A DNA stretch of 64,000 nt from a virus. Taxonomy: Duplodnaviria; Caudoviricetes. This document shows, one piece after another, positions 854 through 62,797 of this stretch (position 1 is the first letter of the stretch; the number at the start of each line of letters is the position of its first letter). Below the pieces are notes generated by a model. The model ran no database searches. It was not told the DNA's origin and saw only the letters and a list, made by a program, of their open reading frames with translations. Position numbers and translations under genes: made by a program. The stretch is taken from positions 64,001 to 128,000 of the IMG/VR virus record IMGVR_UViG_3300029288_000085, one strand, 5' to 3'.

Positions 854-3034
854 TTATCTCACATCTTGAGTTCTAGATATTTCTACCCATTTACCAACAC
901 TAGAATTATATATAAAGGTAATAACATCAACAGAACTGGCGGTTCCCGTCATGGTAAATGCATCTCCAGCAAGGAGATAATTATTACCAAATGCTACGGT
1001 GAATGGGCCACCAGCCGCAGCTTGCTGGATGATAAAACGTAGTTCTGTTCCAACTGCACTCCTGTTTGGATTTTTGATAGTCGTGTTTTCCGTTAAGAGG
1101 TGGTATATATTCCAACCACTTTCAACGGTGACGATAACTTGATTACTGACACTTAATGCAGCTTGTGTATAGTTGGCAATACCGGCATTGACACGCAATG
1201 CACCAACACCCATGCGATCAAATTCTACATCTGTTGCTGCTGCCCCAGATCCAAAAAGCTGAGTGCCATCCACTTTAAGAACAAAGCCATCATAAGAATC
1301 CAGTACGCCAGATGTACTTACTCTTGTTTGTAGAACATTTAATGCTGTCGAACTTCTAACAAGAAATAGAATCTTATTTTGATACATCCTTATATAGTCA
1401 TCTAATCCACCAACAAATTTAAAGTAGTCCATCCTATCGTCAATCCAAAGAGTCGTGGTACTACTGTCAGTAATGTTGGATGTAGAAATATTTCTGAAGT
1501 CATTTATGTAAGTTCCAGCAGTGATCTTCGTATAGAGGGTATTGGCATTTATTATGCCACCTCGCAGGCCACTATCTTGGCATGTGATAAACTCAACTGC
1601 ACTACATCTATCTAAATTGAATATTGCCCGCCTAACATCTACGTATCCATCCGCTTTAGAGTCAGGGTCAGCCCCGTCCGATAGTCTAACATAGACTGTG
1701 CTGTATCCAAGTGTATCATTATCCCCATAATCCCATTCACTGGCTGCAAGAGATCCCATAGTGCCAACAGTCATTTTTACGGCATTTTCGTAAACCATTG
1801 AAGGCTCAACTAGACTCGGGTCACCTCCTGCGGCCAGTTCTACATAATATTCATTCGTTCCAGATCCAGAGGCTGTCCATTTGTAGGTTCCAGCCAATAC
1901 GATATCTTTTGCATCGGTTGAAAAAACGCAATGGTCAAAAACAACATTTCTAGGATTCTCCCCGCCTTCGTTGTCAATTTTCACGGCATATGGCATGACA
2001 GTCGGGGTTATATACCCATCGTATCCTATTGATTCGAAGTGTGACCTGATAAATGAGTATCTCCCTCCAGCAGTTAGATGTATTCCGTAATGGCTACTAG
2101 CTTCAAAAACTCCTCCTAACACAAGTACGTCATATGGGCCACTGTTGACATCATCAAGTGCTTCTGTCAAATTCCCATCACAGTGAAATGCCGTTTTGCC
2201 AAAACGATAACTACCACCAACAATAGTAAGGGTTGTCCCATCACAGATATAGAGTTGATATTCTGTGTTGGAGTAACTATAGATGTTATTAAGCTCTGTC
2301 TCAAGGCATCGAGACAGTAATATTCCTGCATTAGTGAAACCCGTTACAACACAATCCTCTATCTTTCCATTGAGCGCAATCCCATGAAGATTGAATCCAT
2401 TTACACCTGTAGAATTTCCATCAAGATATAGATTTTTGAATGTGACTCCAAATGTCCAATATGTCGGTGTTTGGTCTAATGAGTAAGTGTTGAAAATGTC
2501 AACAGCAGCAGTTGCGATCAGCTTGCCTTTCCCGCCCATTCCCTCAAATGTCCAATCCAATCTTGTACTAGCGATCAATGTTGGAAGAGTTAATGCTGTT
2601 CCTATGCCATAACCAGATGAATTAGCATTAAATAAAAATCTACATGGTAATATTGGAGCAGAATTAATCATCTTCTGTAATGATGTTGAAACATCGGTTC
2701 CATCAGCAGTAGCGAACCATCCTGCACATATATCCCCACCAATAGTAAATGCAACACTACCAGTACCAGTGAAAATAACTTGGTTTGGTGATGCTATAAT
2801 ATGCCCTGGTGAATTTATTGTAAGAGTATTACCATTAGTATCAATCATTCCATCATAAACAAATATTAGGAATACATTAGCAGGACATGCTAAATCTGCT
2901 GATAAAGTTTGTAGTGTGTCTATAACTAGATGACTTTTATTTACTCCTACTTTAGTGATTGCTGTTTCTAATCCGCCACCTAAATAAGTTACATTCTTAC
3001 TTCCTGCATGTGCATATATCAACTTGTCAGTCAT
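854..3034 (-). CDS. Tail spike / receptor-binding protein with a pectin-lyase-like parallel beta-helix
   Basis: Beta-helix rung motifs (GVTFKNLYLDGN..., IEDCVVTGF..AGI, VVFDHCVF), position right after the tail-tip gene, and a C-terminal beta-sandwich-like domain. Confidence 0.75.
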   Translation of the reverse strand: MTDKLIYAHAGSKNVTYLGGGLETAITKVGVNKSHLVIDTLQTLSADLACPANVFLIFVYDGMIDTNGNTLTINSPGHIIASPNQVIFTGTGSVAFTIGGDICAGWFATADGTDVSTSLQKMINSAPILPCRFLFNANSSGYGIGTALTLPTLIASTRLDWTFEGMGGKGKLIATAAVDIFNTYSLDQTPTYWTFGVTFKNLYLDGNSTGVNGFNLHGIALNGKIEDCVVTGFTNAGILLSRCLETELNNIYSYSNTEYQLYICDGTTLTIVGGSYRFGKTAFHCDGNLTEALDDVNSGPYDVLVLGGVFEASSHYGIHLTAGGRYSFIRSHFESIGYDGYITPTVMPYAVKIDNEGGENPRNVVFDHCVFSTDAKDIVLAGTYKWTASGSGTNEYYVELAAGGDPSLVEPSMVYENAVKMTVGTMGSLAASEWDYGDNDTLGYSTVYVRLSDGADPDSKADGYVDVRRAIFNLDRCSAVEFITCQDSGLRGGIINANTLYTKITAGTYINDFRNISTSNITDSSTTTLWIDDRMDYFKFVGGLDDYIRMYQNKILFLVRSSTALNVLQTRVSTSGVLDSYDGFVLKVDGTQLFGSGAAATDVEFDRMGVGALRVNAGIANYTQAALSVSNQVIVTVESGWNIYHLLTENTTIKNPNRSAVGTELRFIIQQAAAGGPFTVAFGNNYLLAGDAFTMTGTASSVDVITFIYNSSVGKWVEISRTQDVR

Positions 3035-6000
3035 TAAGTTATTGTGATACCCCCACTACTAATATTACTATCATAGATACTGGCTGTATACCCACTTCCA
3101 CCAGATTGATATACTGCCATTTGGAATAGATCATCCACTATCTTATTTGAACTCGCTACTGCTTGTACATAAGTAGCTGATGATTGTTGATACCAATCAT
3201 AATCTCTTACTGCAATTTTAACACTAGGATTATTACCATAGGACATAACTTCAGAACTTGTAAGAATTCTAGTAAAATTATTCTCTCCTATATATGTAGG
3301 TGTTGACCACCCACCACTACCAATTTTAATCTTATATTCATAAGATTTATGATCTTTCTCTTCACTCTTATCCCAACTAAAATTAACTCCACCAACTACG
3401 CCAACAGCAACAACCCCCATAAGTTTTTCTGGAACTGAATTGTATGCATCAAATCTGAGATTTCCAACTGATGTCTGACCTTGTGTATTTTTAGAATAAA
3501 CTATAAAAATCAACGGGTTAGCTACAGTTCCATACATACTATTCTTTGCATCATCCATCATATTTTCAAATGTATATGTGAATGTTTCTCCACTTATAAA
3601 TTGAGTTCTTAGAAGATTGGAACCGGAGACTGATGTATGATATATTTCAATTACATACCCTTTTAATATCATTGGATTATTGGGTGGATTCCAAGCAATT
3701 GTAACGTCTTTACCATCATATGTGTGAGTACAGGGATATCCAACAAGATATATTCCGGTAGGTGGGTCAATAATATAAGCCATAGAGGAAAGATAACAAG
3801 ATAAATCTACAGGATCACTTACTTTATGTATAGTTCTAGACATAAATCTAAAATCATACGTCTTATCTAAGATGAGTGAGTTGTTAATATATTTTGCCCA
3901 TCTTCTATCAATTGGGATTGTAGCAATTGGTTGATACAGTGAAGAGTCTTGCCCATATTCTTTCATCTGAACTAAAATCTCTATCACATTAGGACTATCC
4001 AAAGGTGGATCAGCTTTTAAAATAAACCCTATCCCCTCTTGTGCGGGTAAAGGATTTACTTGTGCATTTATTGGTGGTTTAGGTTTTAATAGTGGGTTAG
4101 GTAATTGTGATGGTCTATCCTCTACTACACTAATTACAGGTTCTGTAGTATATAATTCAGATAGATGTTCTACTCCAGCAAGTTCTACTTCATTCTCTTC
4201 TGTTCTACTAACATTTATTAATCTAAATTTCTTAGAAAATGATCCTGTCTTCCCAAACACAAATACTGAATTACTTGTTGGGTATGCTGCTCCTGGAAAT
4301 CCATTCACTTTGATAGTTTGTGTCTTTTCATTATTTGAATGACTTGCAGTATTAACAGTAGCTACTACAAATGAATTCTCATTATTTTGATATCTAACAA
4401 TGTATGTAGCTGAAACTGTAGCAACTGTAACTGAGGCATTCAGAACTATTTTATTAGTTGTAGAATTGTAAGATAATACTCTTCCACCCTCACCCCATTG
4501 AGGAAGATCATCTTGGAGATATATAATATCTCCAGCAGTAGCATGAATATAATCCAACCCACATTTTACTGAGACAGTATGTGAGCAATTCGTTACTTTA
4601 TTCAGTTTCCACTTTAGTTCACGCTCTGCCTTTTTTCTATTAGTAATACCTTTTAGACCAACAGTATTTTCATTGAGTTTAGTTAATGTTGTAGATGTAG
4701 ATCTTGCTGCCAACGATCTCATATCATAATCTTCATCTTCATCAGTATATTGACCAATTAGTTTATGAGGTATTTCTGAAAGTGGGGCAAAAGATTGTGA
4801 AAATGAAGTTGTGTTACCTTTAGAAAGTGTATGTACGGGTGTATCATCAGTATCTGCAACGAAATTGATTTTACCATCATACCAAATAGGCCACGTTCTA
4901 AATGAATCACACATTTCAAGTAAAGCCGCAAGAGCGGATTGACCAGTTTCTAACACTCCATCCCAAGTATGATAATGCATCTTAGATACTGAACCAACAG
5001 ATGGTGCAGTTGCACTTCTATCTAATGATACATCTGAAATTGTCATTGTGAGGGTTGCCAACGAATCTGCATTATTTATCATTAGTCCTAACTTTGAGAA
5101 TCCACTATTTTTAGCTATAAAAGAATTAGTAACGTGTGTTCCACTACTCTTATTAGTAAGATCAGTAACAACCCCACTATTCCAACCGCTAACATTATCC
5201 CATAACCAAAATTTCAGATTGCAACTTGCATTAACACTTGCTAAAGTAACTCTTGCTCTATATGTTTCTCCTCTACTTAATGGACAATTAAAATCAAATG
5301 CTGCACCATAAAGATAGGCATTAGATAGATTAATTTTGCGAGCAGTACTATTAATACTTAATGTTTGATTCGTGAAGAATAATGGTGATATATGATTTCC
5401 AAATGTATCTTGAGGTCCATTGTCCCACCAATATAGTCTATCAATAGACGTTGGATAATATACTTTATGACATTCTTTTATAATTGTTGTAGTAGGATAA
5501 AGATCTGTAGTTTTAAAATAATCACCAATACCATATCGTGTGTTGAGTACCATATCTCTTACACATACCATAGCATTATTTGACCATTCAGTTCTCCAAC
5601 TAGCAGCATTATTCCAATACACTACACTATCGTCTATATTTTCCCATCTGTTGTCCCCATTATCCCAATAACAATTATCAAATCGTACATTAGTTCCAGC
5701 AGAGACCGCACTCTTTATAGCTGGAACCTGAACCTTTTCTCCCTTAATAACTGTTGTAACTTGTGGAGGAGCACCTGATATTTGTCCTGATGCTCTTATT
5801 CTAAATCCTAATAATGCTGTATCTGGATAGATGAACTTTCCTTGTACGATTTCTAAGACAGAATGCAACTCAATTGTATCGGCTATGCTTAATTGATTTG
5901 AAGCATCACCATAAGGACGGAATAATCTTATTTGATATACATCATTTCCACTACCATTAAGAATATTATTAAAATCTAAAGTTACGGAACTCCATACACC

Positions 6001-9358: not shown

Positions 9359-12300
9359 TTATACATTATAACTTCTAAAGGTAGATCCTTTATTCTGCAT
9401 ATCTCTACCAATCGTATTTACAATAACTCTTTTACCCATTGAAGTAGTCATTGCCCCTGCAATATCATCAGGAGTTACTATATTAAGAACTTGAATAGGA
9501 GTTTGTGAATCTCTCATATATCCAGACACACTATCTTCTCTTATATTCTCTTGGGGGATTACTAGTTCTCTACCGGACTTGTTATCACCTAATAATGCAA
9601 GAGTATTACCCCTTGTCAATCCACCTCTAGAGAATTTCTTAAAAGATTCTATGTGGGGTAGAATACCGCCTTGACCTTTTACTGTTTGTAAATATGGATT
9701 AATACCTTCAGCAGTCATCCCTGTTGATACAGTGTCACCGCCAAAATAACTTAATCCAGCCATTACAGCTTTCATTGCCAACCACTGAAGTATTGCTTTC
9801 CTTGTTGCATCTACTAAATCTTTAAAGAATACTCTAAACATTTCACCAATTTGAGTTATAGGATTTTTAAGATCGGATATTTCCTCATTTAATCTAGACA
9901 TCTCATTAGTAATATTCTTGACTTTTATAGCATCACCTTCTGCTATAGCTGCATCATAGTCAACTCTTAATTGTTGTAGTTCACCCTCAAGATTTATAAT
10001 TTCTTGTTCTTGTTCTTGAAATCCTCCAGTTATATCAAATGTTACTCCGGCTATTCCTTCAGCAAATTGTGTTGATGTCTCTGAAATTAACTTTGATAGA
10101 AACTGATTAGTACTTAATACTTGTTCTTTTATATTTTTATAAGCATCATAAACTGGGTCATTAGCACGTTTTATTCTTTCAGTTAATCCTAATTGTTCTA
10201 ATAAGATATTATTCATTTCTTTTAATGCATTAAGACGTTCATTATCATCTTTCATTTCATCTACTGCCACTTTATAAACCATTTCCCGTCTTAAATCCAA
10301 CATTTCCTGTTCAATAGCTAATCTTTCTGTTGGAGGAGCAACAGCCTGTTCTGCCTTTAATTGTTTAATTCTTAAATCAAGAGATACATTTTCTTCCTCA
10401 TAATTTTTATTGGTTATTTTTACTTCTCTTCCAATTTCTCTTTCTGCAACGAATCTTTTATTTCTCAATTGTTGTAAATCATTCTCAAGTTGTTCCTTTT
10501 CTTTCGTTTTCTTTTCATCTAAGCTGATAAATTTTAATGCCTCTTCTTTACCTGCTATCTGTGCATCAATAGTTTTCAATTCCATATTCAATCTATCTTC
10601 AAGAGTAGTATCTCCTACATACATACGTATACGTTGTGATTCTATGTCAAGAGTATCTTGTTCTGTCTTTCTTGCTATCTCCTGTAGTTTTGTACCTTCC
10701 CATTTTACTTGTACTCCTCTTTTTTGTTGATCATAACTTTCCTTTAGACCTTTTAGCTCATTCTTATATTTCCAATTATTTAATCTTGTCAACTCAGTAA
10801 TATCCTTTTTACCAGCATCGTCTTGTTGTCTAATGCTAAGATTAAGTGTAGCCAACTTTTTTTCCTTTTTGTAAATAGCTTCAATATTTTCTAGTTCACT
10901 TCTATAATTTTCATCTGTCATCTCTTCCTTTTTTTCCCTCTGAGATGCTAATTTAAGACTTTGTATTTCTTCTTTGGCTATCTCCGCTTCTGTTTTTAAT
11001 CTTTCCATACGTTCTTGCTGAGTTAATTCAATACCCTCTTTAAGTTTTTTGGGTGGTCTAATTTTGTCAAGATTTTCTTGTATTCCTTTTCTAAGTGTTG
11101 TGCCTGGAGTTACCTTTGGTTCTTTTAGTAGTAATTCTTCAATAGCAGGTGCATTCCTCTGTAATTGTTCCTTTTCCTCTTTTGTAAATGTATCCCATGA
11201 ATCTAGTATTCTTTTTTGAAACCCTGGATAAGCACTTACTATTTTCTTAAGTTCGTCCTTATTTATTACCCCCGCTAATTTAGCTATATCCATCATATCT
11301 TTAAATGAAATACTTAAATTCTCATTGGTCTCTTCTGTTATTATACCAAGAGCATTTACAGTCGTTTCTAGTTCACGTGAGGATTTACTGAGAGTATCAT
11401 AACCTTGTCCTAGTTCTTTCATTTTTTCAGTTGATTTATCATATACTGTGGCATAGGTGCTATTTATCATACTTATGAGTCTGTCATGTGCTTTAGTAGC
11501 ATCTATTGTAGCCTTTTGAATTGTGGCAAGTTGACCTTTAATCTTTTCTTCATGACGACCTTGAATAATTTTCTGTATAATTTCATCTTGCCCTTTATAT
11601 AATTCTAACTCTTCTTCAGTAATCTCTTCAGACTGCTTTGCTAAATTATATGCGTTTTTAAGAGCGGCCTCTGCTTCTTTGCCCTTCAATGTCTTACTAT
11701 ATAAAATAGCTTGTTCATACTCACGAAAACTATCCCTTAACCTATAATATCCTTCCTCTACTGTTTTTATATCATCTCTTAACTTCTTAAATACTAAAGC
11801 ATCATTACCAATTTTTTCAATTACATTATCCCCTTTATCAAGCCATCGTATTAACTCACCCCACCCACCAATAATTTGTGCAATTGGGGATAGTATCGCA
11901 CTAAGTACACTTGAAAGTGTTCTTACACCAGCCACCAATGCAATTAATGCTGGTTCTACGTCCCTCAATAATACATAAGTTCCTGATACTAAATCACTTG
12001 TAAATTGCTGCCATGCCGTACTTAATGTTTCAGTTTGTATTGCAGCAGTAGCTGATGCTCTATTGTGTTCATACATTGCATCAGCAGATTTACGTAAACC
12101 GTCAGAGGTTTGTACTAGAATAGTCATACCAGCAGCAGCACGCCTATCAAACGCTCTAAAAGAGTTTTCAACCCCCCAACCAGCTTTTTTCAATGTTTCA
12201 AGTATTGAAATGAAGTCATATACTTGTGGATCAACATCTCTTAGATTTAAACCCAGATTTGCTACTTCTCGTCTAAAAGCATCAGTAGGTTTTAACAGTT

Positions 12301-57734: not shown

Positions 57735-57977
57735 TCATCCTCTATACCATTCTTCATCAACAACTGTAATGCTCTTGAGAATAGTTATTGGAACGTAGGC
57801 TTTTAGAATAGTCTTTCTGCTAAAAAATGACTTAGGTTTATCACGGAACTCAATTCGTTGATACCCATTTAGTTCATCATTGAAAACTTCAACAAAGTCA
57901 GCAGTATACCATTCCTTACTTCCATCTGTGAGATTAACTTCCCAAACAATCATGGCTTGGCTTCTCCTCTTCCTCAC
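57735..57977 (-). CDS. Hypothetical protein
   Basis: ORF track. Confidence 0.5.
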   Translation of the reverse strand: MRKRRSQAMIVWEVNLTDGSKEWYTADFVEVFNDELNGYQRIEFRDKPKSFFSRKTILKAYVPITILKSITVVDEEWYRG

Positions 57978-58341
57978 AAAAACAGATTACCTTCTGTTTA
58001 AACTTCCTATTCCCAAATGCCCTTTTCAACCTGTCTTTGGCCCTACGCAAATGTGTCTGTACTGAACTTCGACTTATCCCCAACATTTTGGCTACTCTCT
58101 CTTGAGTCCTTCCTTGAAGATAAATGATTTCAACTATTTGCTTCTGCCTACCTGTCAAATGAGAAAGTAAATCTTCTAATCCGACTTCATCCAATTTAGC
58201 ATTATCATATGCATCTGCCATATTATAAGTTTCAGAGTCAAAAGTATCTACGTTGGTACAGATGTATTTCCTTGGTACATAATCCTGATTTACATATTCT
58301 TCTCTCTCACTAGGAGTTAAATCATCCCATGATGGTATCAT
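57934..58341 (-). CDS. Sigma70 region-4 HTH protein, a putative late transcription regulator
   Basis: L..LT.RQ..IV......G.T...VA..LGIS.SSV..HL.RA...L. Confidence 0.85.
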   Translation of the reverse strand: MIPSWDDLTPSEREEYVNQDYVPRKYICTNVDTFDSETYNMADAYDNAKLDEVGLEDLLSHLTGRQKQIVEIIYLQGRTQERVAKMLGISRSSVQTHLRRAKDRLKRAFGNRKFKQKVICFCEEEEKPSHDCLGS

Positions 58342-59410: not shown

Positions 59411-59690
59411 TGATAAAATAAATTACCACCCGTCACAACTACCTGGCACAATTTGTCACAATATGGACAATTCTGGAAGAGGTGGAATAATCACACAAGC
59501 CGTAAAATACCATCCGCAATCACACTGGATTGATAATCCACATCCTCAAGTCTTATTTTCCCAATCCTTATTATCACCATATTTTTCTTTTAGTTGTTTA
59601 AAATCCATATAATATCTCCTAATAATTCTAATGAACCATTGTGGATGACTGACGAGCAAGGGGTGAACTTTTTTTGAAAAAAGTGCTATC

Positions 59691-59849: not shown

Positions 59850-60221
59850 ATGAACAACATACCGTGGTCAGAATTTAAACATATACAAGGATCTGAAATA
59901 TGGCCTTCTCACAATCCAGCAGATTCACCGTTTGATAAATTTACGTGTATTCACTGTGGGGAAATCCTACATATCTTAATGTATGGGTCAAGATTTATAT
60001 GTGAATCTTCATTTGAACAGAAGGCGGAAAGAGAACTAATGAATCATTTAAATTGCTGTGGGGAATTTCAGTCAGTTAAAGACAGGAAGAAGTATTTTAA
60101 ACCAGACGGTTCTTGTACAAATATCTGTCCATGGGGATATGGTGTTGTAATATCTACTGAATTGTGCATTGCATTGCCAGAGTGTAAAAAGGAGTTTGGG
60201 GGTAAAAATGATCTGTATTGA
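59850..60221 (+). CDS. Cys-rich hypothetical protein
   Basis: ORF track; CxxC and further Cys residues. Confidence 0.6.
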   Translation: MNNIPWSEFKHIQGSEIWPSHNPADSPFDKFTCIHCGEILHILMYGSRFICESSFEQKAERELMNHLNCCGEFQSVKDRKKYFKPDGSCTNICPWGYGVVISTELCIALPECKKEFGGKNDLY

Positions 60222-60417
60222 CACAGAGGGAATTCAGCATAATATCTCTTTTGGAAAGAATCTAGCTGGAATAACCCCCAGATTCATAAGAATAGAAATT
60301 AATCCAAAGGATATATTAACATATAATCATTTTAAATATATGCTAGAACATGTGTTTAATGCATTAGCCCCAAATGGAGAATTAGTTATAAAAAGTGAGA
60401 GTATTAATAGCCTGTGA
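60169..60417 (+). CDS. Hypothetical protein (start probably ATG at 60208)
   Basis: ORF track. Confidence 0.5.
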   Translation: MHCQSVKRSLGVKMICIDTEGIQHNISFGKNLAGITPRFIRIEINPKDILTYNHFKYMLEHVFNALAPNGELVIKSESINSL

Positions 60418-60979
60418 ATTTTCAGGTATAGTAAGAGAGGCATTCAGAAAAAGAGGGCATGATGCATGGAGTTGTGACTATCTTCCTACGGAAATACCAG
60501 GAAATCATATTCAAGGGGATGTTCTATCTATTATAGATCAATCTTGGGATTTGATGATTGCCCACCCACCATGCATCCATTTGGCAGTATCCGGTGCAAG
60601 ATGGTTCAAAGAGAAGATGAAAGAACAGGAAGAGGCTTTAGACTTTGTCAGGCAACTTCTCAATTCCCCAATTCCTAGAATAGCACTAGAGAATCCGGTA
60701 AGCGTAATCTCAACCAGAATAAGAAAACCAGATCAGATTATCCAACCATGGCAATTTGGGCATGATGAAAGTAAGAAAACATGCTTATGGCTGAAGAATC
60801 TTCCATTATTGAAACCAACTAATATCATATTGAAAGACAGGTATTCAAATCAAACTCCATCAAAGCAAAATAAGCTAGGCCCATCACCAAACAGATGGAA
60901 GGAAAGAAGCAGGACATATACTGGAATAGCAGAAGCGATGGCTGAACAATGGGGGAGTAAATCACCAACCATCACCTAA
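60395..60979 (+). CDS. Short phage DNA cytosine-C5 methyltransferase-like protein
   Basis: VLIACE.SG.V..AF...GH.A.SCD, AHPPC (catalytic PC), ENP, RSRT..GIA.AMA.QW. Confidence 0.85.
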   Translation: MRVLIACEFSGIVREAFRKRGHDAWSCDYLPTEIPGNHIQGDVLSIIDQSWDLMIAHPPCIHLAVSGARWFKEKMKEQEEALDFVRQLLNSPIPRIALENPVSVISTRIRKPDQIIQPWQFGHDESKKTCLWLKNLPLLKPTNIILKDRYSNQTPSKQNKLGPSPNRWKERSRTYTGIAEAMAEQWGSKSPTIT

Positions 60980-61012
60980 AATAACCTAATTTGGCTGAAA
61001 GCTAGGAAAACT

Positions 61013-61207
61013 ATGAAAATAAGCACTTTTATAAGAGAAAAAATAGCCAATTTCCAAAAAACCATCTGGGAGAAAATTTCATTTTTAGCCCAGAATTGCA
61101 CAGATGAGCAGAAATTGCAACTACTGAAGAAAATGGAGGCATATGAAAAACGAAGCAAATTGAAGCAAATTGAAGATAGGAAAATTAGAATACCATTTCT
61201 ATTCTAA
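61013..61207 (+). CDS. Hypothetical protein
   Basis: ORF track; AGGA RBS. Confidence 0.5.
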   Translation: MKISTFIREKIANFQKTIWEKISFLAQNCTDEQKLQLLKKMEAYEKRSKLKQIEDRKIRIPFLF

Positions 61208-61239
61208 TAACCAAAAAGGAAATTTTCTAAGGAGGGATT

Positions 61240-61488
61240 ATGTTAAATTGGTTACGCAAACGACTTTTTCTCAGTGATCATGAATGGAAGAAGAAGAACT
61301 GTCCAACACTATACAACTACCTTTTTGAACTGAATGATGAAGAACGACATTCTGTTTTTGAGAAAATCGTGGAAAACAGTAAACAGAATAGAGTCTGTCC
61401 TACCTGTCATGGGATTTATTGGGATGAAACCTGTCCAGAGTGTTCAGGTAGACATTCTTGTGGAGGATATGAGATAAGGCTAAAGTAA
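61240..61488 (+). CDS. Hypothetical Zn-finger protein
   Basis: CPTC.G...CPEC.G; AGGAGG RBS. Confidence 0.65.
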   Translation: MLNWLRKRLFLSDHEWKKKNCPTLYNYLFELNDEERHSVFEKIVENSKQNRVCPTCHGIYWDETCPECSGRHSCGGYEIRLK

Positions 61489-61719
61489 ATTTTTTTGTGA
61501 AAATTTTTTGGGGGATGAGCCATGTATATAGAAGAGATAGGGGCTATTTTAGCAGAAATAGCAACTATTGTAGGAGAAATAGTAGTAATATTACTTATAG
61601 TAGGATTATGTATAGCAGGTATATTAGGGCTTATTAGACTATTTGAAAAGTGGTAGTTATAATTTTATATGAATATGGTTATGGGGGTAGGTTGCCCCTT
61701 TTCTCCCTTGCGAGTCAAC

Positions 61720-62284
61720 ATGCAAGTATCGTGCCAGGGCAAATTCTCTAGTGTTATCCACTATTTAGCTATTCACATATTCAAAATACTCAATTCCCTA
61801 ATCATATCAAGTGCTTGTGTCCATATGGCATAGTCTATGCATACATGCATAGGGTGTGCCAATGTAACTTGGTTGTTGCACTCACAAACAGTATGGCATA
61901 GTATATGCATAAAGCTTACTTTATATCCTAATAACAGATAGTTATATCCATACTAAGATCGTATGACTTACCTATCAATAAATATGACATATACCTGGAT
62001 ATGGTATGGTATATGCATAGTCAAGAACTATGCCATATCAAAACCATACCATATCACTAGGACTATTCCCTGTATGCATATACCATGCCAGTCTATTCCC
62101 TAGCTATATCCATCGGTTAAATCCATACTAAGATCGTATGACTTACCTATCAATAAATATGACATATACCTGGATATGGCATAGTTTTTGACTATGCATA
62201 GACTATGCCAAATAGACCTGGGCCATGCATAAGTCATGCCAATACTCGATTATGCCCTGGTGAGCATTGGCATAGTCCTTGATC
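61720..62284. promoter_or_regulatory. Array of 11 sigma54 (-24/-12)-like 17-mers in both orientations
   Basis: TGGCA-N6-(T/A)TGCAT type. 8 copies keep GG-N10-GC and 3 have GG-N10-GA; one is TGGCACGATACTTGCAT. Confidence 0.75.
61946..62179 (+). repeat. Perfect 59 bp direct repeat (61946-62004 and 62121-62179)
   Basis: ATCCATACTAAGATCGTATGACTTACCTATCAATAAATATGACATATACCTGGATATGG occurs twice. Confidence 0.95.
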
Positions 62285-62596
62285 CGTAGTCATATCAGCA
62301 AGTTACCTCATACAATATATGGTGGTTCAAAATGATCCTATACAAGGGCTTTCCTGTGTCAAGGGGTAAAAGCATAACAAAATTCGTCAATTGTACGATT
62401 TATTTTGACAAAATTGGGCATAGTTGACTAGTTTAGCTCAATCTAGCATGTATAACATACTATACTAAAAAGAGAGGGATTAAAAAGGCCTATGCTGAAT
62501 ACATAGAGTAGAGACACTGAGAAAAACTAATGACAGGCGAAATTAAATCACTTGCTAATCAAAGCAAAATAAATCTTACGAAAGGAAAAAAAGATT

Positions 62597-62797
62597 ATGA
62601 AAGCAAAAGCAACGAGGAAAGAAGAACTAGCTGCAAAGATAATCACTACACTGTCAAAACACTCAGCCTTTACTGTAGATAGCTTTGTTGCTGTAGCCGC
62701 AAAAAAGACTCTACTGTCTTTGCCAAGTTACCAAATTTCAAATCTCTATGCTATGATTGTACTTGGTGATATGGATAGAGTCATTGATCTAATGTAA
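62597..62797 (+). CDS. Small early hypothetical protein
   Basis: ORF track; AAGGA RBS. Confidence 0.65.
   Translation: MKAKATRKEELAAKIITTLSKHSAFTVDSFVAVAAKKTLLSLPSYQISNLYAMIVLGDMDRVIDLM

Follow-up and report, generated by a model that had tools for sequence, protein, structure and literature searches.

A dense two-way array of sigma-54-type boxes in a gene-free gap of a phage genome as a possible docking platform for host polymerase

We have analysed a gene-free region in the genome of an uncultured phage and found eleven directional 17-mers, distributed over both strands within 565 bp (61720-62284), that show the form of sigma-54-type -24/-12 elements. The window, that is, the whole stretch of DNA analysed here, is 64,000 nucleotides long and comprises bases 64,001-128,000 of a 144,334-bp record with 32.7% G+C; positions refer to the window unless genome positions are given. 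Dense two-way arrays of this type proved to be common among viral contigs but were hardly ever met in bacterial genomes, and no description of them in phages was found in the literature searched. What is already known is the sigma-54 element itself and its use by one phage, YuA. Tentatively, as something quite possible though short of probable, we consider that the array presents docking sites for the host sigma-54 polymerase, which would fire leftward if an activator is present.

The array lies in a gap of 940 bp (61657-62596) that was correctly predicted to be non-coding, as it holds no ORF of more than 54 aa. The gap separates the first early operon (59850-61656, plus strand), whose five genes encode a 123-aa protein, a DNA methyltransferase and three small proteins, from a long run of tiny plus-strand genes that starts at 62597. 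The structural genes, with a Mu-like TerL, portal and capsid gene, occupy the minus strand up to about 59,350. The plus-strand genes begin at 59,850 and extend round the circle, and the array stands 1.9 kb beyond this strand switch, not at it. The ends of the record overlap by 127 bp, and the assembly is accordingly circular. No genome end could be placed at the array, and its proposed location on the first-injected genome end found no support in the analysis; nor did a role as a protein-loading ratchet or shield. At the left side of the gap, a weak terminator-like hairpin with a T-rich tail (61683-61709, plus strand) ends the upstream operon 11 nt before the first box, which is directed back at it. 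This hairpin folds as RNA at -11.2 kcal/mol with a z-score of only -0.5, and the terminator scan did not call it. When the gap was compared at the DNA level with 50,697 phage records, no match was found, and the arrays of two further contigs (L159 and L139) likewise gave none. One strict IHF consensus match is present in the gap, compared with a genome average of 0.18 per kb; with so few sites, one match is no sign of a cluster.

All eleven 17-mers were confirmed in position and strand, and each was scored with an independent class matrix. Box A (TGGCACGATACTTGCAT, 61720-61736, minus) is the best sigma-54 match, and its score of 26.8 is the highest in the genome. Boxes B (61826-61842, plus, 17.8) and C (61845-61861, minus, 20.4) converge across a 2-bp gap, and box D (61894-61910, plus, 17.8) stands alone. 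Box E (62002-62018, plus, 14.8), a TGGTAT variant, abuts box F (62019-62035, minus, 14.4), a TTGACT variant without the C at -12. Box G (62074-62090, minus, 21.3) is followed by another abutting pair, formed by box H (62177-62193, plus, 12.8), again a TTGACT variant, and box I (62194-62210, minus, 20.5). The array is completed by box J (62225-62241, minus, 22.8) and by box K (62268-62284, plus, 13.4), a TTGATC variant that is the outermost box toward the downstream genes. The three convergent pairs of the original prediction (61826/61845, 62002/62019 and 62177/62194) are present. A repeat search of the gap revealed that two of them belong to a 98-bp unit on the plus strand, in which a 60-bp spacer element precedes pair E/F in the first copy (61941-62038) and pair H/I in the second (62116-62213). 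The copies show 87% identity at a spacing of 175 bp, and the central 12 bp of the second copy is inverted relative to the first. Owing to this duplication, the eleven boxes are not all independent but partly paralogous. A shortened box-like remnant, assigned with low confidence (TTGGGCATAGTTGACT, 62414-62429, plus), is the inverted-repeat partner of box I.

The face-to-face pairs could in principle act through nucleic acid structure, as cruciforms, single-strand hairpins or a structured non-coding RNA, and as single-stranded DNA the three pairs do form folds of -7 to -12 kcal/mol (z-scores -2.2 to -4.7). However, the spacers within the boxes do not pair, indicating selection on the boxes and not on stems. 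Moreover, five boxes are unpaired, the 60-bp spacer unit is unstructured, some tandem arrays elsewhere lack palindromes, and a Rfam scan of the gap returned no family at E < 0.1, only two sub-threshold chance matches. A structural role is accordingly very improbable.

In terms of the motif, the GG-N10-GC core that had been taken as invariant is kept in eight of the eleven boxes, but the other three show GA at -12; TGG...TG is in register in all of them. A relaxed box pattern gave 16 matches in the genome against 1.3 in shuffled controls, and half of the 16 fall inside the array. A matrix built from the eleven local copies found only two further sites of at least 18 bits in 144 kb, one in coding sequence and the other a solitary box at genome 128,934. 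When the matrix was built from the arrays of other viral contigs only, all eleven boxes ranked among the top 13 of about 288,000 genome positions, as did the solitary box. The boxes agree with the extended consensus TGGCAC(G)-N4-TTGCW and score 12.8-26.8 with the independent class matrix, which places them in the lower half of the class distribution, four of them near the 5th percentile. In five boxes, an A replaces the T/C directly 5' of TGG. The local copies also share more than the sigma-54 consensus, namely ATA-TGGCAT-AGT-N-T-ATGCAT-A, and this extra conservation (AGT, ATGCATA) may come from the recent duplication or from a different reader.

The strict spacing, the consensus at unforced positions, the fixed half-sites and the canonical single boxes in relatives support the original assignment of the 17-mers as sigma-54-type elements. 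We therefore regard them as -24/-12 elements of this type. This support for the sigma-54 reading is indirect, and physical binding of the boxes by sigma-54 is a prediction. Among the sites bound by sigma-54 in ChIP experiments in Salmonella are fdhF (TGGCAT-N5-ATGCAT), hycA and zraP, which carry ATGC, and STM0649.S, which carries TTGATT (PMC3844500); the local variants are thus within the bound range.

Pattern scans of IMG/VR placed the array in a wider class. Convergent TGGCAY-N5-WTGCAT pairs were found in 93 viral contigs and tandem box pairs in at least 120, where we estimate the chance expectation at below one. Overall, more than 150 viral contigs, ranging from 26-62% G+C, share this box and its geometry, and their arrays reach 16 boxes in 600 bp. 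The spacer is strict: 93 contigs carry convergent pairs with N5 and none with N4 or N6. It had been set out beforehand that homologous arrays should conserve the GG-N10-GC spacing if sigma-54 reads them; at the class level they do, which favours the sigma-54 reading. A logo of 663 boxes gave T-TGGCAY-G/A...TTGCAT, and its unforced positions are those of the sigma-54 consensus (T before TGG, G/A after TGGCAY, T at -15 and AT after GC). The preferred class spacings are 19 for convergent (abutting), 25 for divergent and 26-29 for tandem boxes; on this scale the local convergent pairs measure 19, 19 and 21, and 19 is the commonest class value. On the other hand, an abutting pair was found in only two cases among 185,579 bacterial and archaeal genomes, both of them in MAG contigs from MAGs that have rpoN. 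One viral contig (L178, 10.8 kb) carries tandem box pairs at 128-192 and 10569-10633 as mirror images, 127-128 bp from its ends; either inverted terminal repeats or an artefact of assembly could account for this.

In an alternative that we consider possible but rather doubtful, a phage-encoded or other non-sigma-54 protein reads the boxes, which would then resemble the RpoN box while serving as an operator, as an origin of the iteron type or for partition; the original prediction had already raised a phage repressor or initiator site. The units are directional 17-mers, as with iterons, conservation among the local copies goes beyond the sigma-54 consensus, three of them have no GC, and each box can be written as two GCATA half-sites 11 bp apart. 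Half-sites at this distance are one format that winged-helix tandem dimers use. In addition, the small proteins neighbouring the array gave no known family, and one distant relative (L034) carries different dense repeats, of the GATTRAG type, within its early arm, where they pack a 1.1-kb gap. However, the same box and geometry recur across the class without any shared neighbouring protein. The half-sites are also strictly asymmetric: in the swap test the first half-site was TG in 374 cases and TT in none, and the second was TT in 374 and TG in none. Because the half-sites never swap, a homodimer on direct repeats was ruled out for the wider class. Regarding an origin, iterons of RK2, P1 and lambda ori are likewise multiple directional units of 17-22 bp in non-coding DNA and in both orientations. 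Unlike the present box, which is common to unrelated phages of 26-62% G+C, iterons are lineage-specific and co-evolve with their initiator. Iteron origins also have an AT-rich unwinding element and an adjacent initiator, and the array has neither: the 50-bp windows across 61600-62600 have AT contents of 52-74%, compared with a genome value of 67%, and no initiator was recognised within 3 kb. About 30 kb separates the array from the genes for the primase-helicase and DNA polymerase A, and the turning point of the GC skew lies near 59,500, where the gene strand switches, and not at the array. As an origin marker, GC skew was set aside because it follows the gene strand and is uninformative.

The proteins next to the class arrays fall mainly into the families of a TerL, a probable small terminase and a portal, and none of these families has a homologue in this phage except for a distant TerL; the lack of a shared neighbouring family points to a host reader. 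It appears very unlikely that the array serves in packaging or as a terminus, as a pac or cos site or a piece of a terminal repeat that the small terminase reads. In the largest group of array-bearing contigs, a 129-aa protein family encoded immediately upstream of TerL does lie near the array (median distance 279 bp). Several arrays are at contig ends, but this location is expected anyway, since assemblies break at repeats. In this circular assembly, the 129-aa family has no homologue, and a distance of 4.2 kb, which takes in a divergent promoter region and the five-gene operon, separates the array from the terS-like gene. Near that gene, a 135-aa protein (57934-58341, minus) consists of essentially sigma-70 region 4 only; in all relatives it adjoins a 219-aa protein and the terS-like gene, which makes it a candidate late-transcription factor or, alternatively, a candidate DNA-binding partner of the terminase.

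Relatives of this phage were sought with its TerL, and homologues at 46-61% identity are common in metagenomes, although few of the contigs extend to the early arm. TerL and capsid searches of IMG/VR gave short contigs only, TerL-bearing contigs from Logan, ENA and JGI were mostly without the early arm, and the first early gene had no useful homologue among 5.8 billion proteins. A variant-specific pair pattern found two matches in metagenome contigs, both unrelated. Many of the TerL relatives (P0094, P0111, P0116 and others) are 900-1020 aa long through intein or homing-endonuclease insertions (Hint, Intein_splicing, LAGLIDADG), and the TerL of this phage is uninterrupted. For the 123-aa first early gene, a homologue in L030 (54-287) is co-oriented with TerL, and the two are opposed here; if the five-gene operon has been inverted, the array may mark an ancestral divergent control region.

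Single boxes of canonical form precede genes in three relatives. In L034 (18120-18215), a terminator hairpin is followed by a canonical box, TTGGCACAAGTATTGCA, and then by 35 nt to the ribosome-binding site of a 555-aa Mom-like gene; judged by its sequence, this part of a phage late region has the textbook layout of a sigma-54 promoter. A second box in L034 lies 120 nt ahead of an early gene. L036 (1686-1701) and L242 (63-78) share an identical TGGCACGAAAATTGCA upstream of a late operon, and this is the only conserved block in that region of the two contigs. In L036, two 50-nt repeats with the dyad TGTGGTA...TACCACA, 60 bp apart from start to start, precede TGGCACGAAAATTGCA and could be an activator site. 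The boxes of these three contigs indicate that the lineage uses such elements singly and in sense, like YuA. For this Pseudomonas phage, sigma-54-type promoters are reported in the passage of PMC10914365 that cites Ceyssens et al. 2008, and its record, NC_010116, annotates three promoter-trap fragments as 'high activity, -24/-12 consensus'. Our pattern scan of YuA for the annotated -24/-12 sites was uninformative, as the genome is GC-rich. The GATTRAG-type repeats of L034 have a period of 9-10 bp (2578-3261) and are interrupted by a scaffold gap. Because the genes flanking that non-coding gap are not homologous to those flanking the gap described here, the two gaps may not be equivalent in position. 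A second array in L034 (806-914) is made of 13-bp AAACATTTGTTTT repeats.

The orientation of the boxes is not that of ordinary promoters. Six of the eleven are directed away from every nearby gene, not in sense ahead of one, and the leftward boxes meet no sense-oriented gene for about 2 kb. All seven boxes scoring above 20 with the independent class matrix share the minus strand with the late genes (two-sided sign test, probability about 0.016). The five strong boxes of the array all point leftward, as does the solitary box, the sixth strongest, 2.7 kb away, and the plus-strand boxes of the array are all weaker (12.8-17.8). In each of the three convergent pairs, the predicted start falls within the partner box, so the two boxes of a pair are not usable simultaneously. 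In the wider class, 67 arrays had at least four boxes and scorable flanking genes; divergent gene junctions account for 38 of them and convergent junctions for 3. Where the flanking genes are co-oriented, the class boxes have no preference for the sense orientation (49:44 and 21:26), for which binding is a better fit than ordinary promoters.

No gene for the sigma factor or its activator was recognised in this phage. No sigma-54 DNA-binding domain or RpoN-box motif was found in any frame of the genome, and neither was the GAFTGA loop of an activator. The only PF00158 match was weak and was rejected as an activator, being a clamp-loader-like AAA protein without GAFTGA beside a RecA-like gene. 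No clear upstream activator site was identified near the array, and neither sigma-54 nor an activator was found in five large array-bearing viral records. Firing, if it occurs, would accordingly depend wholly on a host activator. Host inference from an RmlB-like gene was uninformative. Elsewhere in the genome, a box-like TGGCATAGACTATTAAT (genome 25,608-25,627, plus) that has no -12 GC lies 66 bp before a Ro60-like gene. The rsr operon of Salmonella is sigma-54 dependent (Table 3, PMC3844500), and the occurrence here could well be due to chance.

From these data, we infer that host sigma-54 reads the boxes and that they can fire, mainly leftward. In the docking reading, the eleven boxes would form a multi-site platform on which host sigma-54 RNA polymerase binds as a stable closed complex, the state in which the holoenzyme awaits its AAA+ activator (PMC4591121). 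When a host activator is present, the strong left-facing boxes would fire, and their transcripts would run antisense through the first early operon and on toward the late genes of that strand; the terminator scan predicted no minus-strand terminator between the array and these genes. The weaker rightward boxes would serve the downstream early block, and with no activator the sites would simply hold polymerase. On the other side stand the three boxes without the -12 C, the odd base before TGG, the mutually exclusive pairs and the different repeat in L034. Accordingly, we hold the docking reading with some reserve, at less than an even chance.

A narrower alternative is that the boxes bind host sigma-54 or its holoenzyme and were never meant to fire. 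In this case, the replicating array would soak up the small sigma-54 pool and mute its regulons, or the parked complexes would block read-through from one transcription unit into another. The original prediction had proposed a decoy of this type. The lack of strand bias in the class and the near absence of the pairs from bacterial genomes fit it, but the single boxes of relatives, in classic promoter positions, look like real promoters. On the one hand, the architecture is dense, near consensus and orientation-independent, the abutting convergent pairs are useless as promoters, and no activator was found in this phage or in the five large records. On the other hand, many other arrays are tandem and aimed at early genes (L010, L130, L163), four of the eleven local boxes are weak, and a benefit to a phage from sigma-54 depletion is not known. 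In terms of a roadblock, box A and the solitary box both stand directly past a plus-strand terminator and are directed back at it, although a roadblock would be of little use at divergent junctions, where most arrays are. We consider a pure decoy or roadblock unlikely. The solitary box (TGGCATAGGCTTTGCAT, genome 128,934-128,950, minus; L024:4934-4950) lies just outside the window in an inter-operon gap. The terminator that it points back at has 13 pairs, belongs to a 200-aa gene and lies 66 bp before it; on the other side of the box come a large inverted repeat and a sigma-70-like promoter.

Sigma-54 is regarded as a tightly regulated bacterial system with one promoter and one activator, and its use by phages is represented in the literature searched by a single studied case, YuA. 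The abundance of the arrays in viruses and their near absence in bacteria indicate that phages use sigma-54 in a manner unlike bacteria, with multi-copy poised promoters, antisense switches and a sponge as the candidate modes. As a general proposal, which is conceivable but doubtful, the arrays of many phage lineages, including that of the present phage, would capture host sigma-54 polymerase as inert closed complexes on a DNA sponge or parking platform. If true, such a platform would silence sigma-54 regulons, or store polymerase and redirect it at the phage control region. Because recognition of the box is conserved across bacteria, the 565-bp fragment is testable without first finding the host.

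The literature searched yielded no account of a DNA sponge for sigma-54. A partial likeness is 6S RNA, a nucleic-acid mimic that sequesters the sigma-70 holoenzyme and thus acts as a holoenzyme sponge. It differs in being an RNA that targets sigma-70, whereas the present array is DNA with sigma-54-type boxes. The early promoters A1, A2 and A3 of T7 resemble the array in packing several polymerase-binding sites at a phage control region, but they are of the sigma-70 type, unidirectional and more than 100 bp apart. Bacterial sigma-54 promoters (fdhF, hycA, pspA and glnAp2; PMC3844500) have the same TGGCAY-N5-(T/A)TGCAT with GG and GC 10 bp apart, and the two half-sites of fdhF are those of the local consensus. 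In bacteria each site stands alone, in sense and downstream of an activator site; in contrast, the eleven boxes here are spread over both strands within 565 bp, with three face-to-face pairs, most boxes without a downstream gene and no phage-encoded activator. Finally, YuA offers the likeness of a phage that relies on host sigma-54; its sites are single, in sense and in the late structural region, and it is the boxes of L034, L036 and L242 that resemble them, not the local array.
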